Positions 6,047-64,000 of a DNA stretch of 64,000 nt are shown one piece after another; the first letter of the stretch is position 1; every line of letters begins with the position of its first letter. The notes under the pieces were generated by a model. That model was not told the DNA's origin and did no database searches. It saw only the letters and a program-made list of their open reading frames with translations. Source of the DNA: a virus. The position numbers and the translations under genes were made by a program. Location of the stretch: UHGV virus genome UHGV-0021788; one strand, 5' to 3'.

Positions 6047-6069
6047 ATAAGTAGAGTGAGGTGATAAAT

Positions 6070-7389: not shown

Positions 7390-10065
7390 ATGCCTAATAG
7401 AATTTGGAGTGAAGAAAAAAAAGATTGGATAATAGTCGATGAAACAAATTTAGCTACAAATATAGAAGTAATGGATATCAAAGAGTACTATCATAAAAAG
7501 AAAACAGAAGAAGAAACAAAAGATGATGAATTTTTAAGTGTTGAAAAATGCTTAGAACAAATAGGGGATAAAATAAATAATGGTGATATAGGTGCTATAG
7601 GTGAAATAAAAGATAAAGTACAAGATTTGGATGACAGAGTAACCTATATTGAAGAAAACGGTGGTGGTGGAGGAGGTGGCTCTTCCATGCCTACCGTTAA
7701 ACTTCTTAGTGATAGTTATTATGCTATACCAACCGATGGAGAATTAAATATTTATTATAACTTTACTTCTCCAAATATAGGATTTGGTACAGCATTTATA
7801 AGTTTAGACTATGGAACAGCTGAACAGTTATCAGTTGCACAAGGTCGTAATTTTTATACTGTAAAAAACTTAGAAAAAGGTGAACATAGACTAGATATAT
7901 ATGTAACTGATATAACAGGTTTATTCTCGAATACAGTTACAGTAACAATAGTTGTTGGTGGACTTGAATTAACTTCTAATTTTGACGATAGTACGGATTT
8001 ATCCTTAGAGGATTATATTAGAATAAGATATGTTATCTCAACAATATCTTCTAAGCCAATTGAAGTGTCTATTGAAATAGATGGTAAACTAACAAAAGCA
8101 GAAGGTATAATTGGTCAAAATATATTGGAAGTTGGACAGTTTAGTTCATTAGGGGTTCATACAGTTAAAATATCAGCCGTCAGTGGTGATTTAGTATCAA
8201 ACCAATTAGTATTTAATTTAGTTGTAGCCGATTCAGAAAATCTTTATGTATCTACTACTTTTCCTGATAATTATACTATACAAGTAGGTAAAAACCTACA
8301 AATTGATTATAGAAATAGTATGGTAAATCAAAATAGATTTATTACTCATATGCTTATAAATGGTACTGAAGTAGATACGGTAACATCTTATTCAGGATAT
8401 AACTATTGGAACGTTGGGTCTAATTTAGAGATAGGTTTATATACTTTAACATTATATTCTACTACATCCGATGGTGCATATACATCAAATTATTTAACAT
8501 GGGTAATAGATGTTGTTTCAGAAGACTATGTTCCCTTTAAGGTTGTAACAGATGGGTTATTATGTAATTTTGATGCTAATGGTAATCAACAAACATCTTC
8601 TAGTAGAAACATATGGAAAGACGATAGTGGAAACGACGTTAAATGTGAATTGTTTAATTTCAACTATTCTACAAATGGTTGGATAGATAACAGTTTAGTA
8701 TTTAATGGTAAAACATATGCTAAAATAGATTTTTCTCCTTTTAGTGATAATATCAAAAATGGTATGACAATTGATATGTTATTTAAAGTAAAAAATGTTG
8801 GTGATATAGACGGAAAAGTATTATGGTGTAAAAATCCAATTACACCTTACCAAGGTTTTTATATAAATACTTATGAGGCAAATTGTCGTTCTGCCAACTC
8901 AAGAATAGTTAGTAACCAATTTCAAGATGACACATGGACTAGAATAACATGGGTTATTAATAGAGAAGATTTGACAATGATAGCTTATGTAAATGGTATC
9001 ATAACGAAACCTGTATATATAACAGATACAGAAAACTTTAGAATGGAAAAAGATATTTATCTAGGTGTATCATTTGACGAAGTAGATAACAATTTAGATA
9101 ATGATGGTAATCCAATACCTCACTATGCATCTTGTTCTATAAAAACATTTAGAATATATGATAGAGCATTAACTGATGAAGAAATATTACAAAATCATAT
9201 TGCCGATATAAAAGATAAAGAAAAACAATTGGAAATAAGAGAAAAGAACTATGGTGATAGTACAATGCCTATCATAAAATTTGAAGGTAATGTAGAAGGT
9301 ATGGATGGTAGTATCTATAAATTATTAACAATAGATTATAATGACCCATTAGACCCATCTAAACGTTTTAGACAAGAACAATGTAGAGTAAAATGGCAAG
9401 GTACTTCTTCACTAGAATATCCAGTAAAAAACTATACAATAGAACTTAGAAGTGGTGGTAACGTTTGGGAATATGCTCCTAAAGACAATTGGCTACCAGA
9501 AAAAAGATATACTTTGAAGGCTTCGTTTATGGATAGTTCTACATATAATAACGTTGGTTCTTCTAAATTAATTTATGATTACTTTAGAAAATCTAATATG
9601 TTTTATCCACAAGAAATTAAAAATCCTAAAACTAGAGCAGTAATAGATGGTTTCCCAGTTAGACTTTATATTAATGGGGAATCAAAAGGTATATATATGT
9701 TCAATATAGATAGATATGCTGAAAACAATTATGGATTTTCTGGGGAATCATCAATTGTATCTTATGAAATAGCTGTCAACTCTGAAAGTGGTGCTGGTGC
9801 TTTCGCATCAGATGCTTGGTCAAGTATACGTTCTGAATTTGAAATGAGATATCATTATGCTGGAGATGAAAGTGTTGTATGTGAAACTGTTATGGAAAAT
9901 GGTGTACCAACTACTGTTTTAAAAGCAGGTTTTCATTCAGAATTACAAAATTTAGTTTCATGGGTATTAAATTCTACTATAGAAGAGTTTAGAAGTGAAT
10001 TAAAAGAACATTTTGAATTAAACTTTTTAATAGATTATTATCTATGGGTTCTATGTTTGGGTTAA
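7390..10065 (+). CDS. Tail fibre/receptor-binding protein with a Gly linker, Ig-like beta domains and a laminin-G/concanavalin-like lectin domain. Possibly exon 1 of a larger gene fused to 11689..15081.
   Basis: RBS AGGTGGTGA. LamG-like segment (VFNGKTYAKIDF...WTRITWVINREDLTMIAYVNG...IKTFRIYDRALTDEEI). The stop at 10063 lies right at the start of the intron-like array. Confidence 0.6.
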   Translation: MPNRIWSEEKKDWIIVDETNLATNIEVMDIKEYYHKKKTEEETKDDEFLSVEKCLEQIGDKINNGDIGAIGEIKDKVQDLDDRVTYIEENGGGGGGGSSMPTVKLLSDSYYAIPTDGELNIYYNFTSPNIGFGTAFISLDYGTAEQLSVAQGRNFYTVKNLEKGEHRLDIYVTDITGLFSNTVTVTIVVGGLELTSNFDDSTDLSLEDYIRIRYVISTISSKPIEVSIEIDGKLTKAEGIIGQNILEVGQFSSLGVHTVKISAVSGDLVSNQLVFNLVVADSENLYVSTTFPDNYTIQVGKNLQIDYRNSMVNQNRFITHMLINGTEVDTVTSYSGYNYWNVGSNLEIGLYTLTLYSTTSDGAYTSNYLTWVIDVVSEDYVPFKVVTDGLLCNFDANGNQQTSSSRNIWKDDSGNDVKCELFNFNYSTNGWIDNSLVFNGKTYAKIDFSPFSDNIKNGMTIDMLFKVKNVGDIDGKVLWCKNPITPYQGFYINTYEANCRSANSRIVSNQFQDDTWTRITWVINREDLTMIAYVNGIITKPVYITDTENFRMEKDIYLGVSFDEVDNNLDNDGNPIPHYASCSIKTFRIYDRALTDEEILQNHIADIKDKEKQLEIREKNYGDSTMPIIKFEGNVEGMDGSIYKLLTIDYNDPLDPSKRFRQEQCRVKWQGTSSLEYPVKNYTIELRSGGNVWEYAPKDNWLPEKRYTLKASFMDSSTYNNVGSSKLIYDYFRKSNMFYPQEIKNPKTRAVIDGFPVRLYINGESKGIYMFNIDRYAENNYGFSGESSIVSYEIAVNSESGAGAFASDAWSSIRSEFEMRYHYAGDESVVCETVMENGVPTTVLKAGFHSELQNLVSWVLNSTIEEFRSELKEHFELNFLIDYYLWVLCLG

Positions 10066-10204: not shown

Positions 10205-10915
10205 ATGAGTGAAAATAAATATTATGTTTATGAATGGATTAGATTAGACACAAATGAACCATTTTATGTAGGTAAAGGTTGTGGAGATAGATGGAGGAAT
10301 TTATATAGGGATTACAATCCTCGTTTTATGAATATAATAAATAAAGTACCAGTAGCAGTATCAATATTAATAAATAATTTAACAGAAAAGGAATCTTTTG
10401 ATTTTGAATGTTATTATATATGGTTATATAAAGATATTATAGGATATGATATATGCAATATAAATGAAGGTGGGGAAGGTCAAAGTTTATGTGGTGAAGC
10501 TAATGGTTTTTATGGTAAACATCATTCAGAAGAAACTAAAAAATTATTAAGTGAACAACATAAAGGCATGACTTATTCTCAAGAGACAAAAAATAAATTG
10601 AGTGCTATGAGAAAAGGTGAAGGGAACGCTATGTGGGGACGTAGAGGAGAATTATCTCCGCATTGGGGTAAAAAATATTCAGAAGAAAGAAAAAATAATA
10701 TTAGTAAAGCAATGGGTACTTCTGTAAAGTGTATTGAATTAAATATAGAATTTAATAGTCTTAATAAAGCAGAAAAATATATGATTAAAGAATATGATAT
10801 TAAATTTTCTCATAAAACTTTAAAAGCTACGATAGAAAAAAGAAGAAAAAAAGATTGGTATGGAGAAATAGAAATTAATGGAGAATTAATTAAACTTCAT
10901 TGGGAATATTGTTAA
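10205..10915 (+). CDS. GIY-YIG homing endonuclease (I-TevI/Seg-like) with NUMOD3 repeats and a C-terminal DNA-binding domain.
   Basis: YYVYEWIRLDTNEPFYVGKG..R..N GIY-YIG motif. Repeated GKHHSEETKKLLS / SQETKNKLSA NUMOD3-like units. Confidence 0.75.
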   Translation: MSENKYYVYEWIRLDTNEPFYVGKGCGDRWRNLYRDYNPRFMNIINKVPVAVSILINNLTEKESFDFECYYIWLYKDIIGYDICNINEGGEGQSLCGEANGFYGKHHSEETKKLLSEQHKGMTYSQETKNKLSAMRKGEGNAMWGRRGELSPHWGKKYSEERKNNISKAMGTSVKCIELNIEFNSLNKAEKYMIKEYDIKFSHKTLKATIEKRRKKDWYGEIEINGELIKLHWEYC

Positions 10916-11670: not shown

Positions 11671-14600
11671 GTGAAAGTAACAGAATGGTATGATGCAGAC
11701 TCAGAGTTGGGTTTAACCAACGATGGTGAGTTAAGATACGGTTCAGGTATCGACACTTTAACAGATAATTTCAATACTTCTGATTCTAAATTATGGACTA
11801 AATTACTAGAAGCTTTCCCAGATGAAGTACAAGCAAGATATATCTATATGAGAAGTAATGGATTTATGACTTATGAAAATATTATAAAATATTATGAAAA
11901 TATAGCAGATACAATTGGTCAAACATTCTATAATGAAGATGCAAGACTTAAATATATTAATGAAGATAATAAATCATTTATTTATATGTGTAATGGTTCA
12001 AGACTTGAACATACAAAAAGATGGTTAAGCGAACGTATTGTATATATGGATAGTAAATTTAACTATGGTGATTTCTTATTATCTTCTACTATACGTTCAA
12101 ATGTTTCCGGTGAGGTATCATTAAAAGTAAAAACATATTCACCTCAATGGGTAGAAATATCTTTCTCAGATAGTGCTACAGGTACAACAAGACAATGGTG
12201 TAGTAAAGATAAATGGTATACATTTATAAATACCATTGAAAATGCCGTCGACAACAATATCACCATTAGAGGTGTAACTAATATAATGTATTTACAAGGA
12301 TTAGAAAATTTAAATGTATCTTCTTTACTTGTATCAAATGCAAAAGGTTTATGTGAAATTGATATTCATGGTTCTAAACGTATTCAAAGATTGGAACTAG
12401 GTAACAATATCATGTTACAAAAACTTAATTGTAAAGATTGTATTAATTTAGGTATTGATGATAACTATAAAGTTGTTAACTTGGAAAAATGTATCAACTT
12501 AAAATATCTTGATTTATCTAATACTATGATAGGTACACTTCAATTAAATAAAGATGGTGGTGCATTAGAATATTTAGATTTATCTGAAACAGAATTAACT
12601 TATTTAACTTGTAACCATCAAGAATATTTACCTGAAATAAAATTAGATGGTTGTAAAAATCTATCATCTGTTACTATTAATGGTTGTAATGCATTAACAA
12701 GATTGAGTTTACCTAATACTAAATTAGCTGAATTTACTGTAACAGATTGTAATAGTTTAAATTACCTTGATATATCATATACTGGTTATTTAGTAAAATT
12801 AGATTTAACAGGTTGTAGTAGTTTAACTACTTTAATAATGTCAGGTATAGCAAATAATAAATTTACTGAATTAGATGCGAGAACATTAACAAAATTAACA
12901 ACATTAGATGTGTCTAAATGTTATTTCTTAAATAATATAAGATTTGCTAATGGATATAATGCTTTAACATCTGTAAACTTCCAACAAAGTGGGATTAAGA
13001 CTTTACAGTTTGGAAATAATGAAAAACCTCCTTATTTAGATTTATCTCCATTTAATTTAACAGAAGTTAATTTCTATAACTGTACTGAAATAGAATATAT
13101 TAAAAATATAAAATTATATGCTACAAAATCCATAGAACCTTTTTATAATTGTGTTAATTTACACACTATAGAAGGTACTATAAGTTTAACTGATGATTTA
13201 GGAAGAAGTTTTTATAATTGTAAAAAACTAGTTAATTTACCTACTTTAGATTTAAGTAGAGTTAAAACAGCTTCGGATTCCTTTATGCATTGTGAGTCTT
13301 TAACTTATGACCAATTACTAGAAATTTTAGGTAAGATGAATAATTGTCAAAGTTTTTATAGAACTTTCCAAAACTGTTTAGCTATGGAACATGACGGTTG
13401 GGAAAAAGCTTTATTCGATAAGATACCAAAAGCAACTTATTTTTATTGGACATTCTCAGATACTCCAATAAGCGGACAATTAGAGCAAGGAATCTTTGAT
13501 AGTTTATTAGATTTACAAACTGTAGATGGATTATTTAGCGGTGGTAAGGCAAAAGGTTATATTCCAGCCAATCTATTCAAATATAATACAAAATTACAAA
13601 ATCTTTGGAATCTATTTAATGGATGTAAAGAATTAGAAACTGCTACTAATATAGTAAACATGTTTACCACTACAGTAGATTTAAGAGGTATAGAGGGATT
13701 ATTTAGTGGTTGTACTAATGCTTTTATGAAACTAAGTGATACATGGTTTGCAAATTGTCCAGAGCTACAAAATATGGATTATGCTTTTGCAAATTGTACA
13801 AACTTAATTGGTTCTATAGCTGAAAATCCTCATATGATAAAAAATAAATCTAAATTAACAACAGCAGAACATACCTTCCTTAATTGTACAGGCATAAGTG
13901 GTGATTTACCTGATGATTATTTTGTTGGGTGTACTGCTTTACAAGAAATACAAGGACATTTTCAAGGATGTACTGGTCTAACAGGAACTCCTAAAACTGA
14001 ATCATGGATAGATTGTGAAAATATAACTAATGCTTCATATTTATATGCAGGATGTACTGGTTTAGGTGGTATAGCAGGTGCTACTCAAGAAATACCTAAA
14101 GATTTCTATAAAAGAAAATATAGACTTATAGATATATCTGGTATGTGGCAAGGTTGTAATCAACTACAATTTTCTCTAATGCCATTAAAAGAAGATAAGT
14201 TAGGTGAGGATGGAGCTGTTATAGAAAAAGGGGACGACCCTTGGTTTGTTGATTGTAGACAGTTAGCGAAAATAAATTATCTATTTGATGGTTGTAGTAA
14301 TTTATCATCTGTAATACCTTCTAGGTTATTTGAAGTTTGGGATGAAAAAGGCGAAGTAATGGATACACTTATAACAGAAGCTAAAGCGGTATTTAAAAAT
14401 TGTCAATTACTTACAGATGAAATACCAGAAAATCTATTTGAAAAATTTATTAAAGTTAGAGATTTAACTGAATTTTTCTATCAATGTAGAAGTTTAACTG
14501 GTGGTATTCCTGATACATTATTTTCTAATTGTTATTCTTTAGTTTATGCTAATAGAATGTTTATGCGTTGTGGTAAATTAGGAAAATATGCAGACCAAGT

Positions 14601-15081
14601 AACAGAAGAAGAGCCATATTTCTGTAATGAAGAACTATTTTGGAACTGTCCTAACCTATTGGAAATATCTCAATTATTCCATATGTATGATGGATGGGGA
14701 ACTTCTCTAAGAGGAGACATACCTCCATTGTTATTTAGAGCTAATCCTAAATTACAAAATATAAATAATGCCTTTGCTGGTTGTAGTCTTTTAACTGGTG
14801 GGTTGGATGGGCAACTATTTGTTAGAAATGCTAAATTAAAAACTGCTAGAGAAACTTTCCACGGTTGCTCAGGTTTAAATGGAGAAATGAGTGGAGCGTT
14901 ATTTACCTCTACTAATAATCCACTTTTAACAGATTTCTATCAAACCTTTCAAAATTGTAAAAATATACAAGGTACTGCACCTTCATTATGGACACAATTC
15001 TCTAATGCAAATGGTGGAGGATGTTTTAATGGATGTACTAAATTAAGTAATTATGCAGATATACCTTCACAATGGAAATAA
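11671..15081 (+). CDS. Large adhesin/receptor-binding protein with classical LRRs and many BspA-type (LRR_5) F.GC..L.G repeats. Listed GTG start 11671 is doubtful; it may be exon 2 joined to 7390..10062 from 11689.
   Basis: LDLSNTMIGTLQL..LDLSETELTYL LRRs. More than 12 FxGCxxLxG/IPxxLF units. Weak RBS; the N-terminus overlaps ribozyme core C. Confidence 0.6.
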   Translation: MKVTEWYDADSELGLTNDGELRYGSGIDTLTDNFNTSDSKLWTKLLEAFPDEVQARYIYMRSNGFMTYENIIKYYENIADTIGQTFYNEDARLKYINEDNKSFIYMCNGSRLEHTKRWLSERIVYMDSKFNYGDFLLSSTIRSNVSGEVSLKVKTYSPQWVEISFSDSATGTTRQWCSKDKWYTFINTIENAVDNNITIRGVTNIMYLQGLENLNVSSLLVSNAKGLCEIDIHGSKRIQRLELGNNIMLQKLNCKDCINLGIDDNYKVVNLEKCINLKYLDLSNTMIGTLQLNKDGGALEYLDLSETELTYLTCNHQEYLPEIKLDGCKNLSSVTINGCNALTRLSLPNTKLAEFTVTDCNSLNYLDISYTGYLVKLDLTGCSSLTTLIMSGIANNKFTELDARTLTKLTTLDVSKCYFLNNIRFANGYNALTSVNFQQSGIKTLQFGNNEKPPYLDLSPFNLTEVNFYNCTEIEYIKNIKLYATKSIEPFYNCVNLHTIEGTISLTDDLGRSFYNCKKLVNLPTLDLSRVKTASDSFMHCESLTYDQLLEILGKMNNCQSFYRTFQNCLAMEHDGWEKALFDKIPKATYFYWTFSDTPISGQLEQGIFDSLLDLQTVDGLFSGGKAKGYIPANLFKYNTKLQNLWNLFNGCKELETATNIVNMFTTTVDLRGIEGLFSGCTNAFMKLSDTWFANCPELQNMDYAFANCTNLIGSIAENPHMIKNKSKLTTAEHTFLNCTGISGDLPDDYFVGCTALQEIQGHFQGCTGLTGTPKTESWIDCENITNASYLYAGCTGLGGIAGATQEIPKDFYKRKYRLIDISGMWQGCNQLQFSLMPLKEDKLGEDGAVIEKGDDPWFVDCRQLAKINYLFDGCSNLSSVIPSRLFEVWDEKGEVMDTLITEAKAVFKNCQLLTDEIPENLFEKFIKVRDLTEFFYQCRSLTGGIPDTLFSNCYSLVYANRMFMRCGKLGKYADQVTEEEPYFCNEELFWNCPNLLEISQLFHMYDGWGTSLRGDIPPLLFRANPKLQNINNAFAGCSLLTGGLDGQLFVRNAKLKTARETFHGCSGLNGEMSGALFTSTNNPLLTDFYQTFQNCKNIQGTAPSLWTQFSNANGGGCFNGCTKLSNYADIPSQWK

Positions 15082-46242: not shown

Positions 46243-47775
46243 TTATTTATTTGCTTTTCTATATTCATATTCTTCTTTATTTAATTCTTCTACTTCTTCT
46301 TCATTAAGTAAATGATATTCATCACACCATATTTCAAACTCTCCATTTTGTACCCATTTTGTTTTAGTTATTGTATTTCCATCTTTGTCTATTGTTTCAA
46401 CTTCTTTTTTTTCTTTTTTTGCCTTTTGAAACATATGGTATACATTGATTACACTAAATGCTTTAAATGGTTGTGCTTCATAAATTCCTTCACCAACTTT
46501 TATTTCTATGTTTTTTCCAGTACTTATATTAAAAATCCATGCTTTTTTATTCTTAAATTTGGTTATAACATCAATAACGATACAAGTTGATGAATCATAA
46601 TCTTCAAAATAATAATTACATTCTCCAGTCATTTCAAGATTAATTTTAACCTTATCTATTGATGGCATTTCGTTATCTTCTATATTCAACATTAATTCAT
46701 TACATAATTCTAATGCTTTTTCTACTTTATATTGTTTATATTTATCTTCTTTACTTTTTTCAGTTGCATATTTTTCTATTATTTCTTTAGGATATGGTAG
46801 GTCAGCTTTATTAAATGATACTTCACCTTTCTTAGATTTTAATTTTTTACTCATTATTTTTTCATATAAATCTATAATATCTAATAATTTTTGTGATTTA
46901 CCAAATTCATCGAAGAAATCTATTGCTATTAATATATTAAGTTGTCTTGAGTTTATAGATGTTTTATCATTTAAATCAATAAGTAAATCCATAAAACTAT
47001 TATATTTATTATCTTTTAACATATATAATTCTTGTGATACTTGTTCATTCATATATTTTATACTAGCCATACCTTTATATATAGAATTACTTTCTTTATC
47101 CATAAAATATTCAGCTTTAGAATATCTAAATTTAGGTGGTAATAATTTTATATCAAAATAACTTAATTCTTTTATTAGTCTATTTGTTCTAGTTGAATCA
47201 TCGGAATAAATAGATAGGGCAACTGTATAATATTCAAGAGGATAATGTGATTTTAAAAATGCTCCATACAGACTATCATAGGCATAAGAAAGTGAATGTG
47301 AAGCATTGAATGAATATTTTGAAGCATCATTAACTACTTGCCATGTTTCTTCAAATCCATCAATTGAACCAACTTTATCTATCCAACCTTTTTTTAATTT
47401 TTTTTCTAACTCTATTAATTCTTTTTCTTTAAATTTTTTCTTTGATATTTTTTTAATAATTCCATATGTTTCAGGCTCAGGAATACCTAACCATATTAAA
47501 TATTTCATAATAGATTCTTGATACATCAAATAATGATAACTATCTTCTAACAAATTATCCAATTCTTTTACACCTGTTGTATATGGTTTTCTTTCTATAA
47601 AATTATCTAATAAAGAAGCAAATCCTGGTCTAATTGAAGCAACAAACGCACTCATTTCAGCTACACTAGAAACTTTATATCTTGATGCTAAATTAGTTGC
47701 AAAATCTGAATCAGATTGATTTATTGTACAAGTTATTTTATCTTCATATATTTTAAATGTTTTTTCATCTAACAT
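46243..47775 (-). CDS. dnaE: DNA polymerase III alpha subunit (DnaE-type), C-terminal exon. It may extend a few codons upstream of the Met.
   Basis: FNASHSLSYAYDSLYGAFLKSHYP matches DnaE FNKSH..Y....AYLK.HYP. Confidence 0.7.
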   Translation of the reverse strand: MLDEKTFKIYEDKITCTINQSDSDFATNLASRYKVSSVAEMSAFVASIRPGFASLLDNFIERKPYTTGVKELDNLLEDSYHYLMYQESIMKYLIWLGIPEPETYGIIKKISKKKFKEKELIELEKKLKKGWIDKVGSIDGFEETWQVVNDASKYSFNASHSLSYAYDSLYGAFLKSHYPLEYYTVALSIYSDDSTRTNRLIKELSYFDIKLLPPKFRYSKAEYFMDKESNSIYKGMASIKYMNEQVSQELYMLKDNKYNSFMDLLIDLNDKTSINSRQLNILIAIDFFDEFGKSQKLLDIIDLYEKIMSKKLKSKKGEVSFNKADLPYPKEIIEKYATEKSKEDKYKQYKVEKALELCNELMLNIEDNEMPSIDKVKINLEMTGECNYYFEDYDSSTCIVIDVITKFKNKKAWIFNISTGKNIEIKVGEGIYEAQPFKAFSVINVYHMFQKAKKEKKEVETIDKDGNTITKTKWVQNGEFEIWCDEYHLLNEEEVEELNKEEYEYRKANK

Positions 47776-48197
47776 TTTTTCTAATTCTTTAATAGTCGGT
47801 ATTTTAATATTAGCTAATTCACAAGTTTTTCTTATTAATGTCCAAACTGTAACCGCAAGATACGTTAATACCGTTCCTTTCGGAATACTTTAACACCCAT
47901 TTAAGGGTCGGACTAGACTATACCTTTATCTTCGACATTACTCGTTAAGATATGCCTATTATAGTCGTTGAAGGTTTCCCATTTTAAAGGGATTTCCCTG
48001 CTGATTATCCATTCATTCGCCCTTAGCGCCTTTTACAAGGCTTTTATTTCAGCTTAGGTAATCCTTATAATTTTTTCTGCTTTCGCAACCATCAAGCTTA
48101 ATGTCACCATTTACTTTGTGGTTTATAAGGCTTTAGGAACTCCCAGCAATTTAAGGCATCATAATCTACATAATTTCTTATATAGACGACTATTAAA
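47776..48197 (-). ncRNA. HEG-less group I intron splitting dnaE. It is homologous to +strand introns 1 and 2. Boundaries are approximate.
   Basis: On the - strand: AAUUGCUGGGAGUUCCUAAAGCCUUAUAAAC block (= intron 1 block). GCGAAAGCAGAAAAAAUUAUAAGGAUUA. P7 CAACGACUAUAAU and GGUAUAGUCUAGUCC. UUCCGAAAGGAA GNRA hairpin. Locally higher GC. Confidence 0.6.
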
Positions 48198-51173
48198 TTA
48201 ATCATTCTTTAGATATTTATAAACATCACAATTATAACCATCTAAATTACAACATATTCCTTCTTTAGTTTTTATTAAACCAATTTCTTCTGAAACATTT
48301 TTATCATATAATAACATTGAACAAGGTGATTCTGATATACTTTCTACTACTCCTTTAAATACTTTTGAATCTTTTATTATTTTTCCCCAATATTCATCAT
48401 TTTCATATTGTTCTAAATTTTTAGCTATTTCATCATATTTACTAACATGCATATCATTTGCCTTACACCATAGTCTAAAAGCAGATGAATCTTGTAAAGG
48501 TTTATATGATAAAATCCAAGCACAATTTTCTTCGCCTAATAAATCTTTAGTTGCTTGTATAAATACTGAACGGTCTTCTGTATTTAAATCTACATCAGGC
48601 AATGAACGTGTACCTAATATACGTTCTATACTCATAAATCTAGTTGGATACAATGGAACTGGTGCAGACAATCTATCTATTTCTGTTAAACCTAATAATT
48701 TATTTATAATAAAACTTACAGCTGAATTATGAACTATCATATTATTAAGTAAATAACTATGCTCATTTTCAACTTCTATATCATATACTGTGGTTTTTTG
48801 TTTAGGTAATATAATGATTTCCTTAATAGGAAGATAATAGTAATTATTATCCTCGAAAGTTCTTTCATTTTTTTTCTGTGAATAATTAGAATTTTTATTT
48901 AATCTTAATTTATAAGATTCTTTACATAAATACCCTTCTTTCATTTTATGTTCTTTTCTTACGCTTAAACTATTTACTCCTTCATCCGTCATTAAACATA
49001 ATAATTTATATGCGTTTATTAAAGATTTTGAAGTATTATCGAAATTGATTCTATATTCACAAAAGCTTCCATCTGATAATCTTAATCCTTTTACTATACC
49101 TAATAAATTTTCTTTTGATTGATTAAACCATTTTTCATTAAATATTTTATCTTTTCCTTTTTTAGATTCAAATAATTCCTGTTTAACAAAATTACAAAAT
49201 ACTGTAGAATTAATATATAGTTGACTTAATTTTTTAGTTTTACTTACATTTTCATATATAGATTTATTTAATTTAGATGCTATATTATAAAATATTTCTC
49301 TATTATATTTATCTTTTTCAGTAGTATTGTTTATGGCTAATCCAACACTGGTTTTTTTAGAAGTAAATCCGTCGCCATACATTAATCCTATAAATATATT
49401 AAATTCTTTATCTATTTCAATATATCTTTCTAATTTTGAAAATTGTTTAGATTTAACATATTTAGAATATTCTTCTTGGGTATTAAAAGGTATATAATCC
49501 ATTAAAGCTTTATATTTATCTTTTTTCCTATTAAAACAATTTTTTTTCATATTTGCAAAATTTTCTACTAATGACTTACCAACACCTATTTTTCTTGCAA
49601 CATCACTAGGAGAATATTTATAAATAGTATTAGTTTTTTCATATATATATTTATCATCAAAATCAAATCCGTTGATATTATAATCATTTAAATCAATTAT
49701 CTTATTTAAACTATCCGTAACATTTATTTTAGGTACACATACATAATCTGTTTTCACTATATCTTTTGCTTGTATCCATTTTAATGTATTATTTCTGTTT
49801 ATAAGTATTTTATGGTCTAAAGTACATACAGTTGGATAATATTTATCAGTACCATAGATATGTTTAATTTGAACTAATTCTTCTTCTATATCATATTTTG
49901 CAGTGTTAATTACCTTATTAAAATTTCCACTTTCTGTAATTACATAATCACCTATTTTAACATCCTTTATAGATTTTAAAGAATTTTTTGTATGAACTAA
50001 AGCATCTTCAGTAAAACATCCTCTTCCAGTCTTAGTTAATAAACCATTATATTTATTTATTGCTCTTTGACATATTTTATAATCTAATATAAAATAATCT
50101 TCCATGTGTGTTTTTTCGATTATATTAAATTCATATTTTATAGCATCTAAATACTCATTCCATCTTTCTTTAGGTATCGTATCTCTTATTTCCACCCATC
50201 TTTTATTAATTATATCTTTTAATTCTTTATTTGGATTATCAGATATTGATGGCATTTTAATTTCTTTATCCAATATAATATTTTCACATTCGTCAAAAAT
50301 TAAAGTATTATTAATTGCGACTTTTATTTGTTCTTCATTTAATACATTTTGTTTATTATATCTTTCTATTATAGTTTCTACATTAGGATAATCTAATATA
50401 AAATTTGTTTCTTCTTTATATATAATACCTTTTGCTTTAAGAAATAATTCTCTATAAATATAATCTTGTGGATTAATATAATGAGAATCATTACCATGAA
50501 TGATATTAATATTATATTTTTCACTTAAACATATAATTTTTCTATTAAGATTTTTTTGTATATCTTCATTATGGTTTTGAACTTCTAAATAAAAATTATC
50601 ACCAAAATACTCTTTCATTTTTATAATCCAATCATCTAAGCCTTCATCATTTCTTAAACGACCAGCAACACAAGCTGTTGTTATGATTACATTGTTTGGA
50701 TTAACACTAAATAATAATTCATCATCTATTCTATTTTTATAATATACTCCATCTATATTGCTATAGGATAATATTCTATTTAGGTCTCTATATCCATCTT
50801 TGTTTTTTGCTATTATAACTAAGTGATAATTAGAGTTATCTTTTTCTTTTCTATCTTTAACATAATATACTTCTGCACCAACTACCATTTTAATACCTTT
50901 GTATGATTTATCACAAACATCTTTATATTGACATTTTTCACAATTATGTTTAGTATATTCATTATTTTCTTGAGTAAGTTTCACACATACTTCGCTACAT
51001 AGAGTATGTGCTTCATATACATTACCTTGATAACCATGTTCAGTAGTAAAATATATTGCATCTTTACCATCTAATTCAATTGCTCTAACTATATATTCTA
51101 TTGGTTTAGCGACTACATCTAAACTTTTAATATTACTATATATTTTATGTGAATGATAATTATTACATCTCAT
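48198..51173 (-). CDS. dnaE: DNA polymerase III alpha subunit, N-terminal exon (PHP domain plus palm). It contains an intein.
   Basis: N-terminal PHP His motifs. ..GLLTKTGRG / SAVSFIINKLLGLTEIDRL is contiguous DnaE sequence once the intein is removed. Confidence 0.7.
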   Translation of the reverse strand: MRCNNYHSHKIYSNIKSLDVVAKPIEYIVRAIELDGKDAIYFTTEHGYQGNVYEAHTLCSEVCVKLTQENNEYTKHNCEKCQYKDVCDKSYKGIKMVVGAEVYYVKDRKEKDNSNYHLVIIAKNKDGYRDLNRILSYSNIDGVYYKNRIDDELLFSVNPNNVIITTACVAGRLRNDEGLDDWIIKMKEYFGDNFYLEVQNHNEDIQKNLNRKIICLSEKYNINIIHGNDSHYINPQDYIYRELFLKAKGIIYKEETNFILDYPNVETIIERYNKQNVLNEEQIKVAINNTLIFDECENIILDKEIKMPSISDNPNKELKDIINKRWVEIRDTIPKERWNEYLDAIKYEFNIIEKTHMEDYFILDYKICQRAINKYNGLLTKTGRGCFTEDALVHTKNSLKSIKDVKIGDYVITESGNFNKVINTAKYDIEEELVQIKHIYGTDKYYPTVCTLDHKILINRNNTLKWIQAKDIVKTDYVCVPKINVTDSLNKIIDLNDYNINGFDFDDKYIYEKTNTIYKYSPSDVARKIGVGKSLVENFANMKKNCFNRKKDKYKALMDYIPFNTQEEYSKYVKSKQFSKLERYIEIDKEFNIFIGLMYGDGFTSKKTSVGLAINNTTEKDKYNREIFYNIASKLNKSIYENVSKTKKLSQLYINSTVFCNFVKQELFESKKGKDKIFNEKWFNQSKENLLGIVKGLRLSDGSFCEYRINFDNTSKSLINAYKLLCLMTDEGVNSLSVRKEHKMKEGYLCKESYKLRLNKNSNYSQKKNERTFEDNNYYYLPIKEIIILPKQKTTVYDIEVENEHSYLLNNMIVHNSAVSFIINKLLGLTEIDRLSAPVPLYPTRFMSIERILGTRSLPDVDLNTEDRSVFIQATKDLLGEENCAWILSYKPLQDSSAFRLWCKANDMHVSKYDEIAKNLEQYENDEYWGKIIKDSKVFKGVVESISESPCSMLLYDKNVSEEIGLIKTKEGICCNLDGYNCDVYKYLKND
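48726..50018 (-). mobile_element. Intein (431 aa) with a LAGLIDADG homing endonuclease domain, inserted at the DnaE GRG/S site.
   Basis: Begins CFTEDALV after GRG. Two LAGLIDADG motifs (IGLMYGDGF, LGIVKGLRLSDGSF). Ends VHN followed by extein Ser. Confidence 0.8.
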
Positions 51174-54918: not shown

Positions 54919-55278
54919 TTATTTAAGATTTTCTTTTGATAATTTTTCTGCAACTTCATTAATTTCATTAAAATAGAAAAATACATCATGAAATTTTTTA
55001 ACTTCTTTATCTAATTCTTTAGTTCTACTATAGTATCCATCAAAAGAACAATGTATTCTCAAGGGTAAATCTTTATTATTTATAAGTCTACAACTGTCTA
55101 AAATTGAAGAATAAATAACATCTTCTATTTTCTTGTATTGTATGATTCCACTACTAACCTTTTTATCTGCAATAAGTTCCAATTCATTATTAATGTATTT
55201 AAGATAAATACCATAACTAGCTTTGGTTGTTTTGTTTATTTTATTAACAAATATATAAACTTCTATTAAACTATTCAT
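54919..55278 (-). CDS. Hypothetical protein.
   Basis: ORF 119 aa. Confidence 0.4.
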   Translation of the reverse strand: MNSLIEVYIFVNKINKTTKASYGIYLKYINNELELIADKKVSSGIIQYKKIEDVIYSSILDSCRLINNKDLPLRIHCSFDGYYSRTKELDKEVKKFHDVFFYFNEINEVAEKLSKENLK

Positions 55279-55660
55279 ATTTTCTAGCCTCTTTCAATAA
55301 TATCTCAAATATTTCCCTACCTTTATCAGCTGGAGATTCTTTTAAATCTAAGTATTTACCATTTTTATCTTCTATGATATAACATTCAAGATTAAAATTT
55401 ACTATTTTTTGACATATTTTATTTAACTTATTTTCCCATTTTTCTCCTTCTCTATCAAATGCTAAATATACCTTTTCACAACCATTAACTTTTAAAAGAT
55501 TAAGTTGATATTCTGATACTGAACTTCCACCTACTGCAACAGAAGGATTATTACCATAAATTGAATCCATTTTTAATACTGATTTTTCTGCTTCAAATAT
55601 AATACATTTTTTATATTCTTTTATTGATTCCTTATTTTTATCAATACCATAAGCATTCAT
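55271..55660 (-). CDS. Primase Toprim-domain segment (C-terminal part of a DnaG-like primase). The frame is open upstream to ~55768 without a start codon.
   Basis: IIFEAEKS...VAVGGSS...YLAFDREGE Toprim pattern. Confidence 0.5.
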   Translation of the reverse strand: MNAYGIDKNKESIKEYKKCIIFEAEKSVLKMDSIYGNNPSVAVGGSSVSEYQLNLLKVNGCEKVYLAFDREGEKWENKLNKICQKIVNFNLECYIIEDKNGKYLDLKESPADKGREIFEILLKEARKYE

Positions 55661-55790
55661 TGAAAGTTTATGTTTATACGTTATCTTATGTGTAAATGAT
55701 GTATAAGGTACATATTTTCTTCCAAATACTTCTACTTGTTTCTTATCTAAATTTCTTTCCCTTATGCCGACCAGCCTTCCAAACTGGTCT

Positions 55791-56318
55791 CTATGTGGGT
55801 ATGATTATTGAATTATTTTCAATATTAAATTTAATACCATATTTATTCATAGTTTCAATTGATATACCTTCATAAATCCATTCGATAGCTTTATAATTGA
55901 CAAAAGTATTAAGTATGCTTTCATCATATTGTGGCAATTGTTCATTAAAGTCTATTTCTTTTTTTATAGGTTTTCTTATAGGAACTTCTTTTTTCTTAGG
56001 TCTACCAAATCCTTTTTGAAAATTCATATTTAAATTAAAATAATCCTCAATAAATTCAACTGATTCTGTAAATGTTAAATCCATTACTTCTTGAACTAAT
56101 GTTATTATATCAAAACTACCACAATTTGTATAACAATGGAAAATTAAAGAATCTTTATATAATTCACATTTCCATGATTCACCACTATGACATAGAGATG
56201 TATTCATAACCATTTTCTCATTTGTTTCCATCTGTTCATTAAATTCTCCGCCTAAATATAAAACTAAATCAACTATCATATCCAATGTAAGTTTATCTTT
56301 AAGTTCTTTACTATTCAA
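55791..56318 (-). CDS. Primase zinc-binding (zf-CHC2) N-terminal segment. It is separated from the Toprim segment by a -1 frameshift near 55770-55795.
   Basis: SLCHSGESWKCELYKDSLIFHCYTNCGSFDIITLVQEV zf-CHC2 motif. Confidence 0.65.
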   Translation of the reverse strand: MNSKELKDKLTLDMIVDLVLYLGGEFNEQMETNEKMVMNTSLCHSGESWKCELYKDSLIFHCYTNCGSFDIITLVQEVMDLTFTESVEFIEDYFNLNMNFQKGFGRPKKKEVPIRKPIKKEIDFNEQLPQYDESILNTFVNYKAIEWIYEGISIETMNKYGIKFNIENNSIIIPT

Positions 56319-58405: not shown

Positions 58406-58579
58406 CTATAAGTAATTATCAACAATAGTCATAATCAATGAAATACCAATTACAGCTAAAAATACCTTACCTATTAAAAAATGAAACAACCAATAAGACA
58501 TTCCTCCTATTAATACAAGACCTAAAGTAACTATAATCATTATAATAAAATATGAAACCCAATTTTTAAAAAAATTCAT
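58406..58579 (-). CDS. Small membrane protein (57 aa, 2 TM).
   Basis: MNFFKNWVSYFIIMIIVTLGLVLIGGMSYWLFHFLIGKVFLAVIGISLIMTIVDNYL. RBS GGGGGGTG. Confidence 0.45.
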   Translation of the reverse strand: MNFFKNWVSYFIIMIIVTLGLVLIGGMSYWLFHFLIGKVFLAVIGISLIMTIVDNYL

Positions 58580-58682
58580 ATTACACCCCCTTTTTTTTAT
58601 AATTTATCTAATTCCTCTTGTAATCTTTTTATTTGGTTTTCTATGTCTTTTATCTTTGCTTTTCTTTTTTCTTCTTCTTGGT

Positions 58683-59153
58683 CTACTTTTGTTTTATAAA
58701 ATTTATCTCTAAAGTCCCACAAATCTTTTGTTTTCCAGTGAACTTTTTATAACCTAAATCATATGCTTTCTCTATGCTAATAAATGGTGCATCCCAATCA
58801 CAATGTTCACCTGTGCATCCATATCTATAGTCATAACCTTTATCATTTTCAGTGCAACAACAATATCCTTCCATGATTTCTTTGTATCCAAAAACTAGTC
58901 TATATTGATAAAAAAAACTATCAATACTACTGTTATAGATATCTACAAAGAATATAAATTCTTCAAAAGGATTATCTGAAGTCATTGAACTAACATTATA
59001 CTTATAATTTTCCATATCATAAAATAAATTTGTGAAACAATCATCATTCTCATATTGTTCTACAACTGCTAAATAAAATGAAGGTTCTATGTTATTTCTC
59101 ACCAGATGTTTATGAATTTCTTTTTTAAATTTACTCTTAATTTCTTCATTCAT
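58683..59153 (-). CDS. Cys-rich hypothetical protein. A -1-frame coiled-coil extension (to 58596) is possible at a T_AAA_AAG site.
   Basis: ORF 156 aa. See the finding on recoding. Confidence 0.45.
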   Translation of the reverse strand: MNEEIKSKFKKEIHKHLVRNNIEPSFYLAVVEQYENDDCFTNLFYDMENYKYNVSSMTSDNPFEEFIFFVDIYNSSIDSFFYQYRLVFGYKEIMEGYCCCTENDKGYDYRYGCTGEHCDWDAPFISIEKAYDLGYKKFTGKQKICGTLEINFIKQK

Positions 59154-59173: not shown

Positions 59174-59202
59174 ATTTACTTATATTATACTATGCTTTTT
59201 AT
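59174..59202 (-). promoter_or_regulatory. Family promoter.
   Basis: The rc reads TTTACTTTTAATAAAAAGCATAGTATAATATAAGTAAATAAG. Confidence 0.6.
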
Positions 59203-59269
59203 TAAAAGTAAATAAATAAAATAAACTTTTTACTTATTTTCAACAATTTTATAAAAAGTAAAATAATAA

Positions 59270-59292
59270 AATTCCCCTCTTGTAGGGGAATT
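59270..59292 (-). terminator. Rho-independent terminator after the small-peptide operon.
   Basis: 9-bp stem AATTCCCCT/AGGGGAATT plus a T-rich tract. Confidence 0.65.
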
Positions 59293-59314
59293 TGCTACTG
59301 TTTATCTTCTCTTT

Positions 59315-59443
59315 TTAACAAATAAATAATAAAAGAAATCCTACTAACAACATTACTACGCCAAGAATCATTTCACCAACCATTAAACCTATTATTCCTA
59401 TAACTATGTTGCATGTACCTACAGCAATACGAAACTTATCCAC
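59315..59443 (-). CDS. Tiny hydrophobic peptide a (42 aa, GTG start), paralog of b and c.
   Basis: DKFRIAVGTCNIVIGIIGLMVGEMILGVVMLLVGFLLLFIC. RBS GGGAG. Confidence 0.45.
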   Translation of the reverse strand: MDKFRIAVGTCNIVIGIIGLMVGEMILGVVMLLVGFLLLFIC

Positions 59444-59447
59444 TTTA

Positions 59448-59582
59448 TCACTCCCATTTAACAAACACTAAATAAAATCCTGTTAATAACATCGCAATAC
59501 CCATCATTATTTCACTATTCATCAAATCTATTATTCCTGCAAGTATGTCACATACACCTACAACTCTACAAACCTTATTCAT
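59448..59582 (-). CDS. Tiny hydrophobic peptide b (44 aa).
   Basis: MNKVCRVVGVCDILAGIIDLMNSEIMMGIAMLLTGFYLVFVKWE. RBS AGGAG. Confidence 0.45.
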   Translation of the reverse strand: MNKVCRVVGVCDILAGIIDLMNSEIMMGIAMLLTGFYLVFVKWE

Positions 59583-59593
59583 TTTATACTCTC

Positions 59594-59710
59594 CTAATTA
59601 ATAAATAATAAAAGAAATACTGCTAAAAACATTGTAATAGCTAAACCTATTTTACCACACATCAAATCTATCACCCCTAGAATAACACAAGCCATAATCA
59701 TAAAAAACAT
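59594..59710 (-). CDS. Tiny hydrophobic peptide c (38 aa).
   Basis: MFFMIMACVILGVIDLMCGKIGLAITMFLAVFLLLFIN. RBS AAAGGAGG. Confidence 0.45.
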   Translation of the reverse strand: MFFMIMACVILGVIDLMCGKIGLAITMFLAVFLLLFIN

Positions 59711-59728
59711 ATTCACTATTCCTCCTTT

Positions 59729-59875
59729 TTACATTCCAAACAAATGCCAAATAAATTCAATTACTGGTATTATAACACCATCACAAAACTTATCCATTAT
59801 AGCTATAAATGCAGTAATAAGACCAGCTATTATCGTAGGGATAATAGTTAATAAGGCTATAATTTCAGTAATCAT
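59729..59875 (-). CDS. Tiny hydrophobic peptide d (48 aa).
   Basis: MITEIIALLTIIPTIIAGLITAFIAIMDKFCDGVIIPVIEFIWHLFGM. RBS AGGAG. Confidence 0.45.
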   Translation of the reverse strand: MITEIIALLTIIPTIIAGLITAFIAIMDKFCDGVIIPVIEFIWHLFGM

Positions 59876-59918
59876 AATTAATCATCTCCTTACATTTATA
59901 ATATGCCTAAATAAAATA

Positions 59919-60716: not shown

Positions 60717-60748
60717 GTTAATCTCTCCTTTATCTTATTTATTTATAT

Positions 60749-60777
60749 TATACTACACTTTTTATAAAAAGTAAAGA
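60749..60777 (-). promoter_or_regulatory. Family promoter for 59919..60716 and the peptide operon.
   Basis: The rc reads TTTACTTTTTATAAAAAGTGTAGTATAATATAAATAAATAAG. Confidence 0.6.
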
Positions 60778-63511: not shown

Positions 63512-63901
63512 CTATTCATTATAATTACTTACATCTATTATCTCACCACATTTTGGACATCTTAATTCAACAATAGTTATCACATTAGTTGGTGTAACTG
63601 TATATGTGAAACTTCTATGTCCTGTTTCACATTTTTTATAATGTTCACGTTGAAATTCTTCTGCTCTTTCCCTTTGTGTATCGCTTAATACAACTAGACT
63701 ATTTCTTTTATAAAAATCTAACTCTTCTTTTAGTCTTTTTACTTCTTCATCTTTAAATTTTTCATCTTTAACCTCCAAATATGCTTGTCTATAATCTTCT
63801 TTATCCTCTTGTAGTATGTCTATTTGGGTTTCTAATTCTTTTAATGTTTCCTTTATATCTTTCCCTCTAAGAACCGCTTTTTCCCAATCCATATTATTCA
63901 C
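63512..63901 (-). CDS. Hypothetical protein with a C-terminal zinc ribbon.
   Basis: CETGHRS...CPKCGEIIDV. Confidence 0.4.
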   Translation of the reverse strand: MNNMDWEKAVLRGKDIKETLKELETQIDILQEDKEDYRQAYLEVKDEKFKDEEVKRLKEELDFYKRNSLVVLSDTQRERAEEFQREHYKKCETGHRSFTYTVTPTNVITIVELRCPKCGEIIDVSNYNE

Positions 63902-64000
63902 TCTCCTTTATTTTCTCTACATGAATAGATTGCAACAGGTTCTAGCATTTCTTCATTCCACACATAAGGATTATTATTATTTGCCAAATGGTAATTTCCA

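Follow-up and report, generated by a model that had tools for sequence, protein, structure and literature searches.

No part of phage genomes is understood less well than the small membrane proteins, which annotation pipelines tend to discard. Among the described examples, superinfection-exclusion and other early membrane proteins, such as Imm and Sp of phage T4 and lactococcal Sie2009, are about 80-170 amino acids (aa) long and occur in single copy. Other small proteins act as regulators or anchors within the membrane, among them AcrZ, MgtR and KdpF in bacteria, gp56 of SPO1 on the divisome and p16.7 of phi29 in replication. Here, we compare with these systems an array of four very small genes (59875..59315, minus strand) in the virus genome UHGV-0021788. 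The DNA that was analysed, called the window throughout, is a 64,000-nt stretch of this ~200-kb uncultured human-gut phage. Three of the four genes belong to an orphan family of micro-proteins for which we predict a hairpin of two hydrophobic helices.

Four consecutive small genes

The initial annotation had proposed four consecutive open reading frames (ORFs), 48, 38, 44 and 42 aa long and all preceded by a ribosome-binding site (RBS), and this is borne out by the sequence. The ORFs, here called a to d, occupy 538 of the 561 nt of the array, and each has its own Shine-Dalgarno sequence (Table 1). Four ORFs of at least 38 codons were obtained in none of 20,000 shuffles of the array region (0/20,000). 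Independent metagenome gene callers also predicted ORFs a, b and c. For ORF b, an alternative GTG start at 59716 would give a peptide of 40 aa, and the KWE tail of peptide c overlaps the RBS of d. The grand average of hydropathicity (GRAVY) of the peptides is 1.2-2.3, compared to 0.73 for the background small ORFs in the region, and the net charge is 0 for b, -1 for c, 0 for d and -3 for a. The C-termini of the three related peptides (...LLLFIC, ...LLLFIN and ...VFVKWE) stop 0-3 residues past the hydrophobic helix. Together with the conservation described below, the ORF structure, the RBSs and the gene calls lead us to conclude that the four ORFs are genuine protein-coding genes.

A phage-restricted family of micro-proteins

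Peptides c and d are 49% identical (E = 9e-12); between b and d, identity reaches 48% across 29 aa (E = 1e-6). Tandem Repeats Finder (TRF) detects a 139-bp tandem period across 59370..59639. Alignment of peptide a with the family by hhalign gave a probability of 5.6%. These sequence comparisons indicate that b, c and d are paralogs and that a is unrelated to them. The earlier proposal that three of the four peptides are paralogous thus stands, with the 38-, 44- and 42-aa peptides as its members and the 48-aa peptide excluded. Peptide b is an N-terminally shortened member. The family consensus reads M-D/N-K-x5-G-x2-D-x3-G-I-I-D/E-L-M-x-G-E/Q-x3-G-x2-M-x3-G-F-x-L.

Membership in the family was taken to require a profile match that spans positions 1-42 with E < 1e-4. 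Peptides b, c and d, all three of which are in the seed alignment of the profile hidden Markov model (HMM), match it at E = 8e-14 to 1e-21. Twenty related loci came from a scan of IMG/VR with the 265-aa protein that is encoded directly upstream of the array and carries SH3 repeats and a DUF1599-like part (the anchor gene), and more loci were obtained by exact-protein look-ups. In the window and 29 related loci, two of which overlap on one contig, the HMM identified 73 copies, 70 of them outside the window. Nearly all (72/73) are close to complete in length; the single exception is truncated where its contig ends. None of the 73 copies contains an internal stop, every copy lies on the strand of its flanking genes, and every copy retains its RBS and start codon at the same place. 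The initial annotation had made its proposal depend on conservation of the ORFs in related genomes; the proposal passed this test, with copies at 29 related loci and no copy disrupted.

Pairwise amino-acid identities in the family alignment fall to the 36-50% range, and a set of positions is nevertheless retained. Among 84 sequences, G16 is invariant, I18, L20 and L38 are 96-98% conserved, and M21, G28, M31 and G35 are 82-86% conserved. Position 19 is acidic in 85% and D12 is present in 68% of these sequences.

In a database of 5.8 billion proteins, the family forms 72 clusters, none of which is annotated; their members are 35-52 aa long except for one extended call of 70 aa. An exhaustive profile search of 1.84 billion representatives returned 11 matches (representatives at 50% identity), all of them tiny proteins of the same kind, including one 111-aa protein that carries the hairpin at its C-terminus. 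Bacterial relatives were sought in the same 1.84 billion representatives, and only these 11 matches were obtained. Exact peptide b (P0063) is found on 33 public contigs and exact peptide c (P0008) on 12; among the carriers of both peptides are contigs from human-gut metagenomes, Hadza samples among them, with lengths of up to 206 kb. Exact peptide d is P0046 in the protein database. All members come from AT-rich gut-phage contigs of ~43-270 kb where the length suffices to judge. One member has been deposited in UniProt/BFVD as 'Uncharacterized protein [Siphoviridae sp. ctsBB38]'.

With Pfam, PHROG, NCBIfam, PADLOC and PDB sequence profiles, no above-threshold match was obtained for the peptides. 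A near-identity DNA search of the window against 50,697 deposited phages and a tblastn search of peptide c against the same set returned nothing. Because this search shows no cultured relative, an annotation cannot be borrowed. Our comparisons indicate that b, c and d are members of an orphan, phage-restricted family of micro-proteins of ~42 residues.

Predicted fold

AlphaFold2 modelled peptide d as a helix over residues 3-22, a break at G23-E24 and a second helix over residues 25-41, with a mean predicted local distance difference test (pLDDT) score of 90.3 and a predicted template modelling (pTM) score of 0.61. Structural neighbours of this model in PDB and BFVD are generic antiparallel helical hairpins with template modelling scores (TM-scores) of 0.8-0.96, none of them significant (E > 0.05) apart from a 43-aa gut-virome protein (39% identity, E = 0.05) that is likely a family member. 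At the turn, the family carries (N/C)-G-(E/Q/K), which in divergent members is replaced by G-x-P (LIYGQPILG, LMWGDPLFG). The hydrophobic stretch is ~37 residues long and has a conserved polar centre.

The initial annotation had read the shared motif as the signature of a single transmembrane (TM) helix. We reject this reading because the ~37-residue stretch exceeds one membrane span, its polar centre is conserved, AlphaFold2 places a break there and divergent members have the G-x-P turn. Peptide a was modelled as one straight helix under the same procedure, so that the hairpin is not a default outcome for short hydrophobic peptides. With moderate confidence, based on the model and the sequence pattern, we therefore predict a two-helix hairpin. 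In the predicted helices, G9/D12/G16/D19/G23 and, separately, G28/M31/G35/L38 follow an i, i+3, i+7 spacing, which is simple helix geometry. V35 occurs only in copies that lack D12 (13 sequences with V35), and position 35 is the site of G35, for which D12 is the predicted contact partner in the hairpin.

Copy number and recombination

Arrays hold one, two, three or four family copies. At 7 of the 20 loci found with the anchor gene no family copy is present; one of these seven (L017) ends at the stop of the anchor gene, so that absence cannot be tested there. Across the same loci, DnaB is 98-100%, the FtsH-like protein 89-99% and the SH3/DUF1599 gene 62-66% identical, while the array varies in the number and type of its members. 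These comparisons place the array in a hypervariable island, bounded by DnaB and the FtsH-like protein, within a conserved replication module.

Many copies are chimeric, for example with a B-type head and a C-type tail or with a d-type body and a KWE tail. The codon cores GGA ATA ATA GAT TTA ATG and GGA TTT CTT TTA TTA are nearly the same DNA even between paralogs. These chimeras and near-identical cores indicate, at the level of sequence, that unequal recombination together with gene conversion keeps reshuffling the arrays, and the ratio of nonsynonymous to synonymous substitutions (dN/dS) can thus not be read at face value. The corresponding ratio of proportions (pN/pS, Nei-Gojobori) is ~1 in three of five ortholog groups and 0.3-0.4 in the other two, at low synonymous divergence. 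For the C-terminal domain of the neighbouring SH3/DUF1599 gene it is 0.35, a value that is inflated by an alignment shift, and synonymous divergence is higher there than in the family. We dropped dN/dS as proof of coding, as it is ~1 in 3/5 groups and confounded by recombination and chimeras. Since it is uninformative, ORF integrity and the invariant columns were taken as the coding evidence.

A second phage group has hardly any DNA in common with the window apart from the SH3/DUF1599 gene and the peptides; three of its loci also share a Zn-ribbon gene. Further, more divergent copies were found at other early-gene junctions in L034, L035 and L036 (e.g. L035 1246-2118) and in L037 (229-484). 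Two of them follow an NT5C nucleotidase gene and two precede a thymidine kinase gene; a further one, upstream of DnaB, is flanked by a Zn-ribbon gene on one side and an SH3-like gene on the other. Since copies occur at other loci as well, one genome can hold at least two arrays. In Clostridium phage phi8074-B1, the best annotated relative with respect to the SH3/DUF1599 gene, no hairpin peptide was found after that gene.

The window contains a 129-aa Zn-ribbon/coiled-coil gene (63512-63987, minus strand), which is preceded by the 3′ end of another ORF of the SH3-repeat type (...PYVWNEEMLEPV). In other phages (L012, L016, L018 and L035), its homologue directly follows hairpin peptide genes. The SH3-type genes, the Zn-ribbon gene and the hairpin genes seem to travel together as interleaved multi-copy families.

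Peptide a

Peptide a (MITEIIALLTIIPTIIAGLITAFIAIMDKFCDGVIIPVIEFIWHLFGM) has nine close clusters that are 79-94% identical to it; all are 48 aa long and the C-terminal half is almost invariant. In every sampled contig that shows the upstream neighbour, it lies between the SH3/DUF1599 gene and the array. AlphaFold2 predicts a single helix over residues 2-45 (pLDDT 92.8), and the N-terminal half is hydrophobic. Peptide a, which is unrelated to the family, would thus be a single-helix membrane peptide that may have been added ahead of the other three in one sub-lineage. Residues 27-32 of peptide a, MDKFCD (59729-59809), resemble the N-terminal MDKF(C/W/R) of the hairpin family. The likeness could go back to an ancient fusion with a member of the family, or the six-residue match may be due to chance.

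In L003 (4759-4800), and also in L005, L007 and L020, what is left of the beginning of peptide a (RBS and ATGATTACTGAAATTATA) is joined to the FtsH promoter, on the downstream and not the upstream side of the array. Its position beside this promoter points to small genes being moved or deleted by recombination at RBS/start junctions.

Transcription unit and genomic setting

The coordinates of the array and of the features around it are collected in Table 1. The family promoter of this phage, TTKACTTTTAATAA-N6-TAGTATAAT, is a near-consensus sigma-70-type promoter with 21 copies in the window, compared to 0.04 expected by chance. An AT-rich hairpin lies immediately before the copy at 60775..60747. 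In the 33 nt upstream of peptide a, a strong -35 element was not found. The only sigma-70-like match close upstream of a is weak (9/12), and matches of this kind are no more frequent here than the background (26 found, 23 expected, both strands). Nothing favours an internal promoter at this place. We considered a second family promoter directly upstream of a and rejected it, as the 33-nt element there occurs once in the window and is a partial copy of the leader of the second phage group. When a family gene directly follows the homologue of the 265-aa gene in relatives, it begins 12-15 nt after its stop; where peptide a comes first, the gap after the stop is ~43 nt. This adjacency was read in 12 distinct IMG/VR contigs and in contigs retrieved later.

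Because the nearest family promoter precedes the 265-aa gene, we conclude that there is one transcription unit, which comprises the promoter, the 265-aa gene, a, b, c, d and the terminator, with the promoter at 60775..60747 as its most likely driver. The array had been described as lying between a family promoter and a strong terminator; the terminator was confirmed, whereas the promoter sits before the 265-aa gene and not directly before the peptides. The same promoter class precedes replication and nucleotide-metabolism genes, and for this reason the operon probably belongs to the early or middle class. The terminator is also kept in the relative L003 (4624-4648) with identical stems.

Table 1. 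Features of the small-gene array, its surroundings and the lysis cassette in the window
Feature	Position	Strand	Remarks
Family promoter TTTACTTTTTATAA-N6-TAGTATAAT	60775..60747	minus	nearest copy upstream of the peptides, before the 265-aa gene
SH3/DUF1599 gene, 265 aa	60716..59919	minus	first gene of the unit; SH3_15 E = 6e-8, DUF1599 E = 0.024
Leader and RBS of peptide a	59886..59918	minus	homologous to promoter/leader element of the second phage group
ORF a, peptide a	59875..59729	minus	48 aa, ATG; RBS AAGGAG 59891..59886, 10 nt upstream
ORF b, peptide b	59710..59594	minus	38 aa from ATG; RBS AGGAGG 59726..59721
ORF c, peptide c	59582..59448	minus	44 aa, ATG; RBS AGGAG 59595..59591, overlaps the stop of b
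ORF d, peptide d	59443..59315	minus	42 aa, GTG; RBS GGGAG 59455..59451, in the end of c
Intrinsic terminator	59293..59269	minus	10-bp stem with 4 GC pairs, then T-rich tail TATTATTTTA
Next family promoter	59212..59184	minus	past the terminator; opens the following unit, downstream boundary of the peptide unit
57-aa hydrophobic protein	58579..58406	minus	different family, separate unit; 10 clusters, 60-100% identity, 9 of them 57 aa
FtsH-like AAA+/Peptidase_M41 protein, 614 aa	58266..56422	minus	~1 kb downstream of the array; 89-99% identity in relatives
Endolysin, Amidase_2 + SH3_3 + SPOR, N-terminal hydrophobic segment	20592-21944	plus	canonical lysis cassette
Hol44-family holin, 92 aa	21959-22237	plus	PF16079, E = 8.8e-16, above cut-off; 15 nt after the endolysin

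The 5-nt loop of the terminator is reverse-complemented between the window and L003 (ACAAG versus CTTGT), which suggests an inversion or recombination through the palindrome. The minus-strand copies of the family promoter are spread over 23499-63421. Three copies are on the plus strand (3880, 6018 and 10155), each immediately before an HNH/homing-endonuclease ORF (3931-4845, 6061-6984 and 10205-10915, respectively).

The window has a G+C content of 26%. On the minus strand, the genes are arranged in the order DnaB helicase, SH3/DUF1599 gene, peptides, Cys-rich protein, 57-aa protein and FtsH-like AAA+/M41 protease, followed by primase, methyltransferase, RecJ and a split DNA polymerase. The 265-aa protein combines SH3_15 repeats with a weakly DUF1599-like C-terminus and falls into PHROG 7488 and 1485, both families of unknown function. 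Unlike in cellular FtsH, the ~180-residue N-terminus of the FtsH-like protein has no hydrophobic TM helices, as judged from the sequence by eye and from the domain map. The further 57-aa protein to which the initial annotation had drawn attention (58406..58579) is present, conserved in 10 clusters and part of a separate unit; its gene was also predicted in L022, L023, L030 and L031.

In the Cys-rich gene (58597-59153, minus strand), one A is missing near 58729 compared to the near-identical contig L022, which splits a 185-aa gene into ORFs of 156 and 41 aa. The intact 185-aa gene is present in L022 and is also encoded by L023, L028 and L030. The split is either a frameshift pseudogene or a homopolymer assembly error. 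Other genes in the window are likewise found in pieces. The plus-strand ORFs 7390-10065 and 11671-15081 match positions 16-852 and 870-1531 of the 1813-position profile PHROG 9915, as if a single large gene had been broken up by the homing-endonuclease gene at 10205-10915. Two ORFs each make up the primase (PHROG 47; 55271-56318, minus strand) and the DNA polymerase (PHROG 405; 46243-51173, minus strand); in the latter, the first ORF has an extra segment that resembles insertions associated with inteins or ribonucleotide reductase (RNR).

Proposed role and alternatives

We propose that b, c and d are early, dispensable and fast-diversifying membrane micro-proteins that would act at the host membrane in an accessory role, either conflict-related or modulating membrane proteins, and not in lysis. 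We hold this reading tentatively, with a probability of roughly 45%. The peptides would be inserted into the host cytoplasmic membrane early in infection, with both ends in the cytoplasm. Each would form a hairpin in which two hydrophobic helices are joined by a tight G-(E/Q/K) turn, replaced by G-x-P in divergent members. The spacing of 11-19 nt between the genes and the RBSs placed over the preceding stop suggest coupled, roughly equimolar synthesis. The conserved residues G9, D12, G16, D/E19 and G23 in helix 1 and G28, M31 and G35 in helix 2 suggest packing of helices within or between hairpins. Through such small and acidic conserved positions, the peptides would form homo- or hetero-oligomers or dock laterally, within the membrane, on a different membrane protein. 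Their insertion, topology, oligomerisation, timing and biological role are all features that we infer.

Possible jobs include superinfection exclusion and the blocking or modulation of a host membrane protein. Our assumption of a conflict-related role follows from the array being dispensable, present in 0-4 copies, chimeric and located in a hypervariable island that has replication genes with hardly any variation on both sides. The early-type promoter, the predicted membrane character and the dispensability and variability are compatible with superinfection exclusion. A role specifically in exclusion or defence is clearly less probable than the proposal as a whole. We also considered that the family might be a new class of early phage membrane effector, in which the co-translated paralogs form hetero-oligomeric rings or patches via the buried carboxylates D12 and D/E19, which could be an ion-conducting or lipid-organising structure or a dock for the FtsH-like or SH3/DUF1599 proteins. 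This more elaborate arrangement is quite unlikely; if it were true, an arms race with membrane-based defences of the host or with competing phages would account for the rapid diversification and the changes in copy number.

Several points weigh against the proposal of accessory membrane micro-proteins. The case is built from sequence and predicted structure, and the AlphaFold2 alignment for d was shallow (17 sequences). A test of helical-wheel conservation was not significant (p = 0.47 and 0.15); we therefore rejected the conservation moment as support for one packing face, and spacing alone is left as the basis of that idea. The co-variation of D12 and V35 is a single lineage event and thus weak evidence. 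The helices of 17-20 residues are short for a full membrane span, so that an in-plane or re-entrant hairpin is possible. A pN/pS near 1 could reflect weak constraint rather than an arms race, and it is also confounded by recombination. No match was obtained with PADLOC, and nothing links the family specifically to exclusion or defence. A search with the anchor gene in 185,579 species-representative bacterial genomes returned no relative and gave no clue to a prophage or host.

The main rival to accessory membrane micro-proteins, itself unlikely, is that the peptides are specific in-membrane regulators or anchors, which bind one host or phage membrane protein and thereby inhibit or redirect it, or tether the SH3/DUF1599 protein, the replication complex or the FtsH-like protease. 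The array lies within the replication module, and the arrangement of the SH3/DUF1599 gene with a family copy directly after it is seen in two distinct genomic settings. The phage FtsH-like protein lacks TM helices at its N-terminus, and the membrane-buried Asp/Glu of the hairpins could pair with a basic residue of a partner. On the other hand, copies also lie beside unrelated genes (NT5C, thymidine kinase, Zn-ribbon), some of them with no FtsH gene adjacent, and the array is missing at 7/20 loci that keep the SH3/DUF1599 gene. Additionally, a fixed partner would usually constrain the sequence more than a pN/pS of ~1 indicates.

The initial annotation had listed holin- or antiholin-like peptides among its candidates. 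As holins, antiholins or pinholin-like proteins, the peptides would time lysis by forming or regulating membrane lesions. They are small hydrophobic hairpins with Gly-rich helices, as are class II holins and pinholins, and several paralogs could serve as holin/antiholin pairs. However, the phage encodes its own endolysin and Hol44 holin 38 kb from the peptides and on the opposite strand, and the peptides lie among replication genes with no endolysin near the array. Holin profiles from Pfam, PHROGs and NCBIfam gave no match for a-d or for 17 family members, and the hydrophilic, highly charged C-terminal tail of holins is not present in the peptides. Their promoter class is the one common to replication genes, and related phages often lack the array. 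The peptides are thus unlikely to be the lysis genes of this phage, and we leave a slim chance for a part in lysis timing.

Slimmer still is the chance that the peptides are toxic, be it as type I toxins (another candidate of the initial annotation), as abortive or addiction depolarisers or as secreted peptides in the manner of leaderless bacteriocins. Size and hydrophobicity would fit, and tandem related peptides recall the multi-peptide leaderless bacteriocins. Type I toxins (Fst/Ldr, TxpA/BsrG or Hok-like) go with an antisense RNA antitoxin that overlaps them or lies beside them, and take the form of a single TM helix with a charged tail and normally repressed translation, whereas here a hairpin is predicted and each ORF has a strong, exposed consensus RBS. 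No antisense RNA signal supports this candidate: promoter-like matches in the region, both strands combined, are at the shuffle background (26 found versus 23 expected), and the plus strand has no strong hairpin other than the shared terminator, which has a poor T-tail in that orientation. No profile matched either. In Rfam, no family matched; the sub-threshold hits to Phe_leader and rimP were rejected as attenuators, since they stem from the terminator and from the end of d, which is rich in Phe and Leu. Leaderless and class II bacteriocins are cationic and amphipathic, whereas the charge is 0 to -1 for b-d and -3 for a. A Gly-Gly leader is absent, and no immunity or ABC-transporter gene is nearby, the neighbours being the SH3/DUF1599, Cys-rich, FtsH-like and DnaB genes. 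Moreover, the genes are part of an early operon in a seemingly large phage genome of lytic type.

It is very unlikely, and the least probable of these explanations, that the ORFs are non-functional by-products of a 134-139-bp tandem DNA repeat (e.g. a replication-origin or recombination element) or decaying neutral AT-rich ORFs: TRF does detect a repeat, it is located between the helicase and primase genes, pN/pS is ~1 with a synonymous divergence below that of the neighbouring gene, and background small ORFs are already hydrophobic here (mean GRAVY 0.73), yet 0/73 copies have an internal stop despite identities down to the 36-50% range, RBS and start codon keep their position in every copy, Gly, Asp and Met positions are held while others drift, and single copies and copies at other loci exist outside any repeat array.

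Comparison with known systems

The family offers a cheap target, namely four genes of 120-150 bp, for probing early phage membrane micro-proteins. Exclusion, anti-defence and the anchoring of soluble phage enzymes are possible functions to ask about. Even if its function were ordinary, the family merits a profile of its own so that it is no longer missed. In a limited keyword check of the literature, we found no earlier description of its fold, tandem arrays or context.

Like T4 Imm and Sp and Sie2009, the hairpin peptides are small, predicted to be membrane-embedded and probably expressed before the late genes; they are dispensable, variable in close relatives and encoded outside the lysis cassette. 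They differ from these proteins in being tandem 42-aa hairpins that share no sequence or profile similarity with them, and they are known here from their genes alone. With the class II holins and pinholins (S21-68) and with Hol44 (PF16079), the peptides have in common a two-helix membrane hairpin, as far as predicted, with Gly-rich faces of the kind that oligomerises. However, they reach only about half the length of these proteins, lack a charged tail and an endolysin neighbour, are under another promoter class and do not match these profiles.

The only curated profiles with even weak matches are NF040511, the 'GPGG-motif small membrane protein', and DUF308 (HdeD repeat, PF03729). The likeness consists in a length of ~45 aa, two hydrophobic helices and a central Gly turn. 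The scores are far under the cut-offs: DUF308 reached at best 14.5 compared to 25 bits (E = 0.044), in 5/17 members, and NF040511 matched peptide c only, with 18.3 compared to 33 bits (E = 0.0018). The central motif reads N-S/G-E, with no GPGG, and both curated families are themselves of unknown function.

AcrZ, MgtR, KdpF and SPO1 gp56 are, like the peptides, hydrophobic proteins of less than 50 aa, and they bind larger membrane proteins (for a review, see PMC10730256). In contrast to the hairpin peptides, they are single-helix, single-copy and constrained, and have a defined partner. Phage genomes are known to contain thousands of small gene families that have not been characterised (Fremin et al. 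2022, cited in PMC11323111), and the family presented here resembles them as an orphan small ORF family seen only in metagenomic phage contigs. Since many small phage families have been catalogued and one member of this family is already deposited as uncharacterised, phage small membrane proteins are already known as a kind; this family is better defined than most of them, and what we add here is its predicted fold, its tandem arrays and its context.

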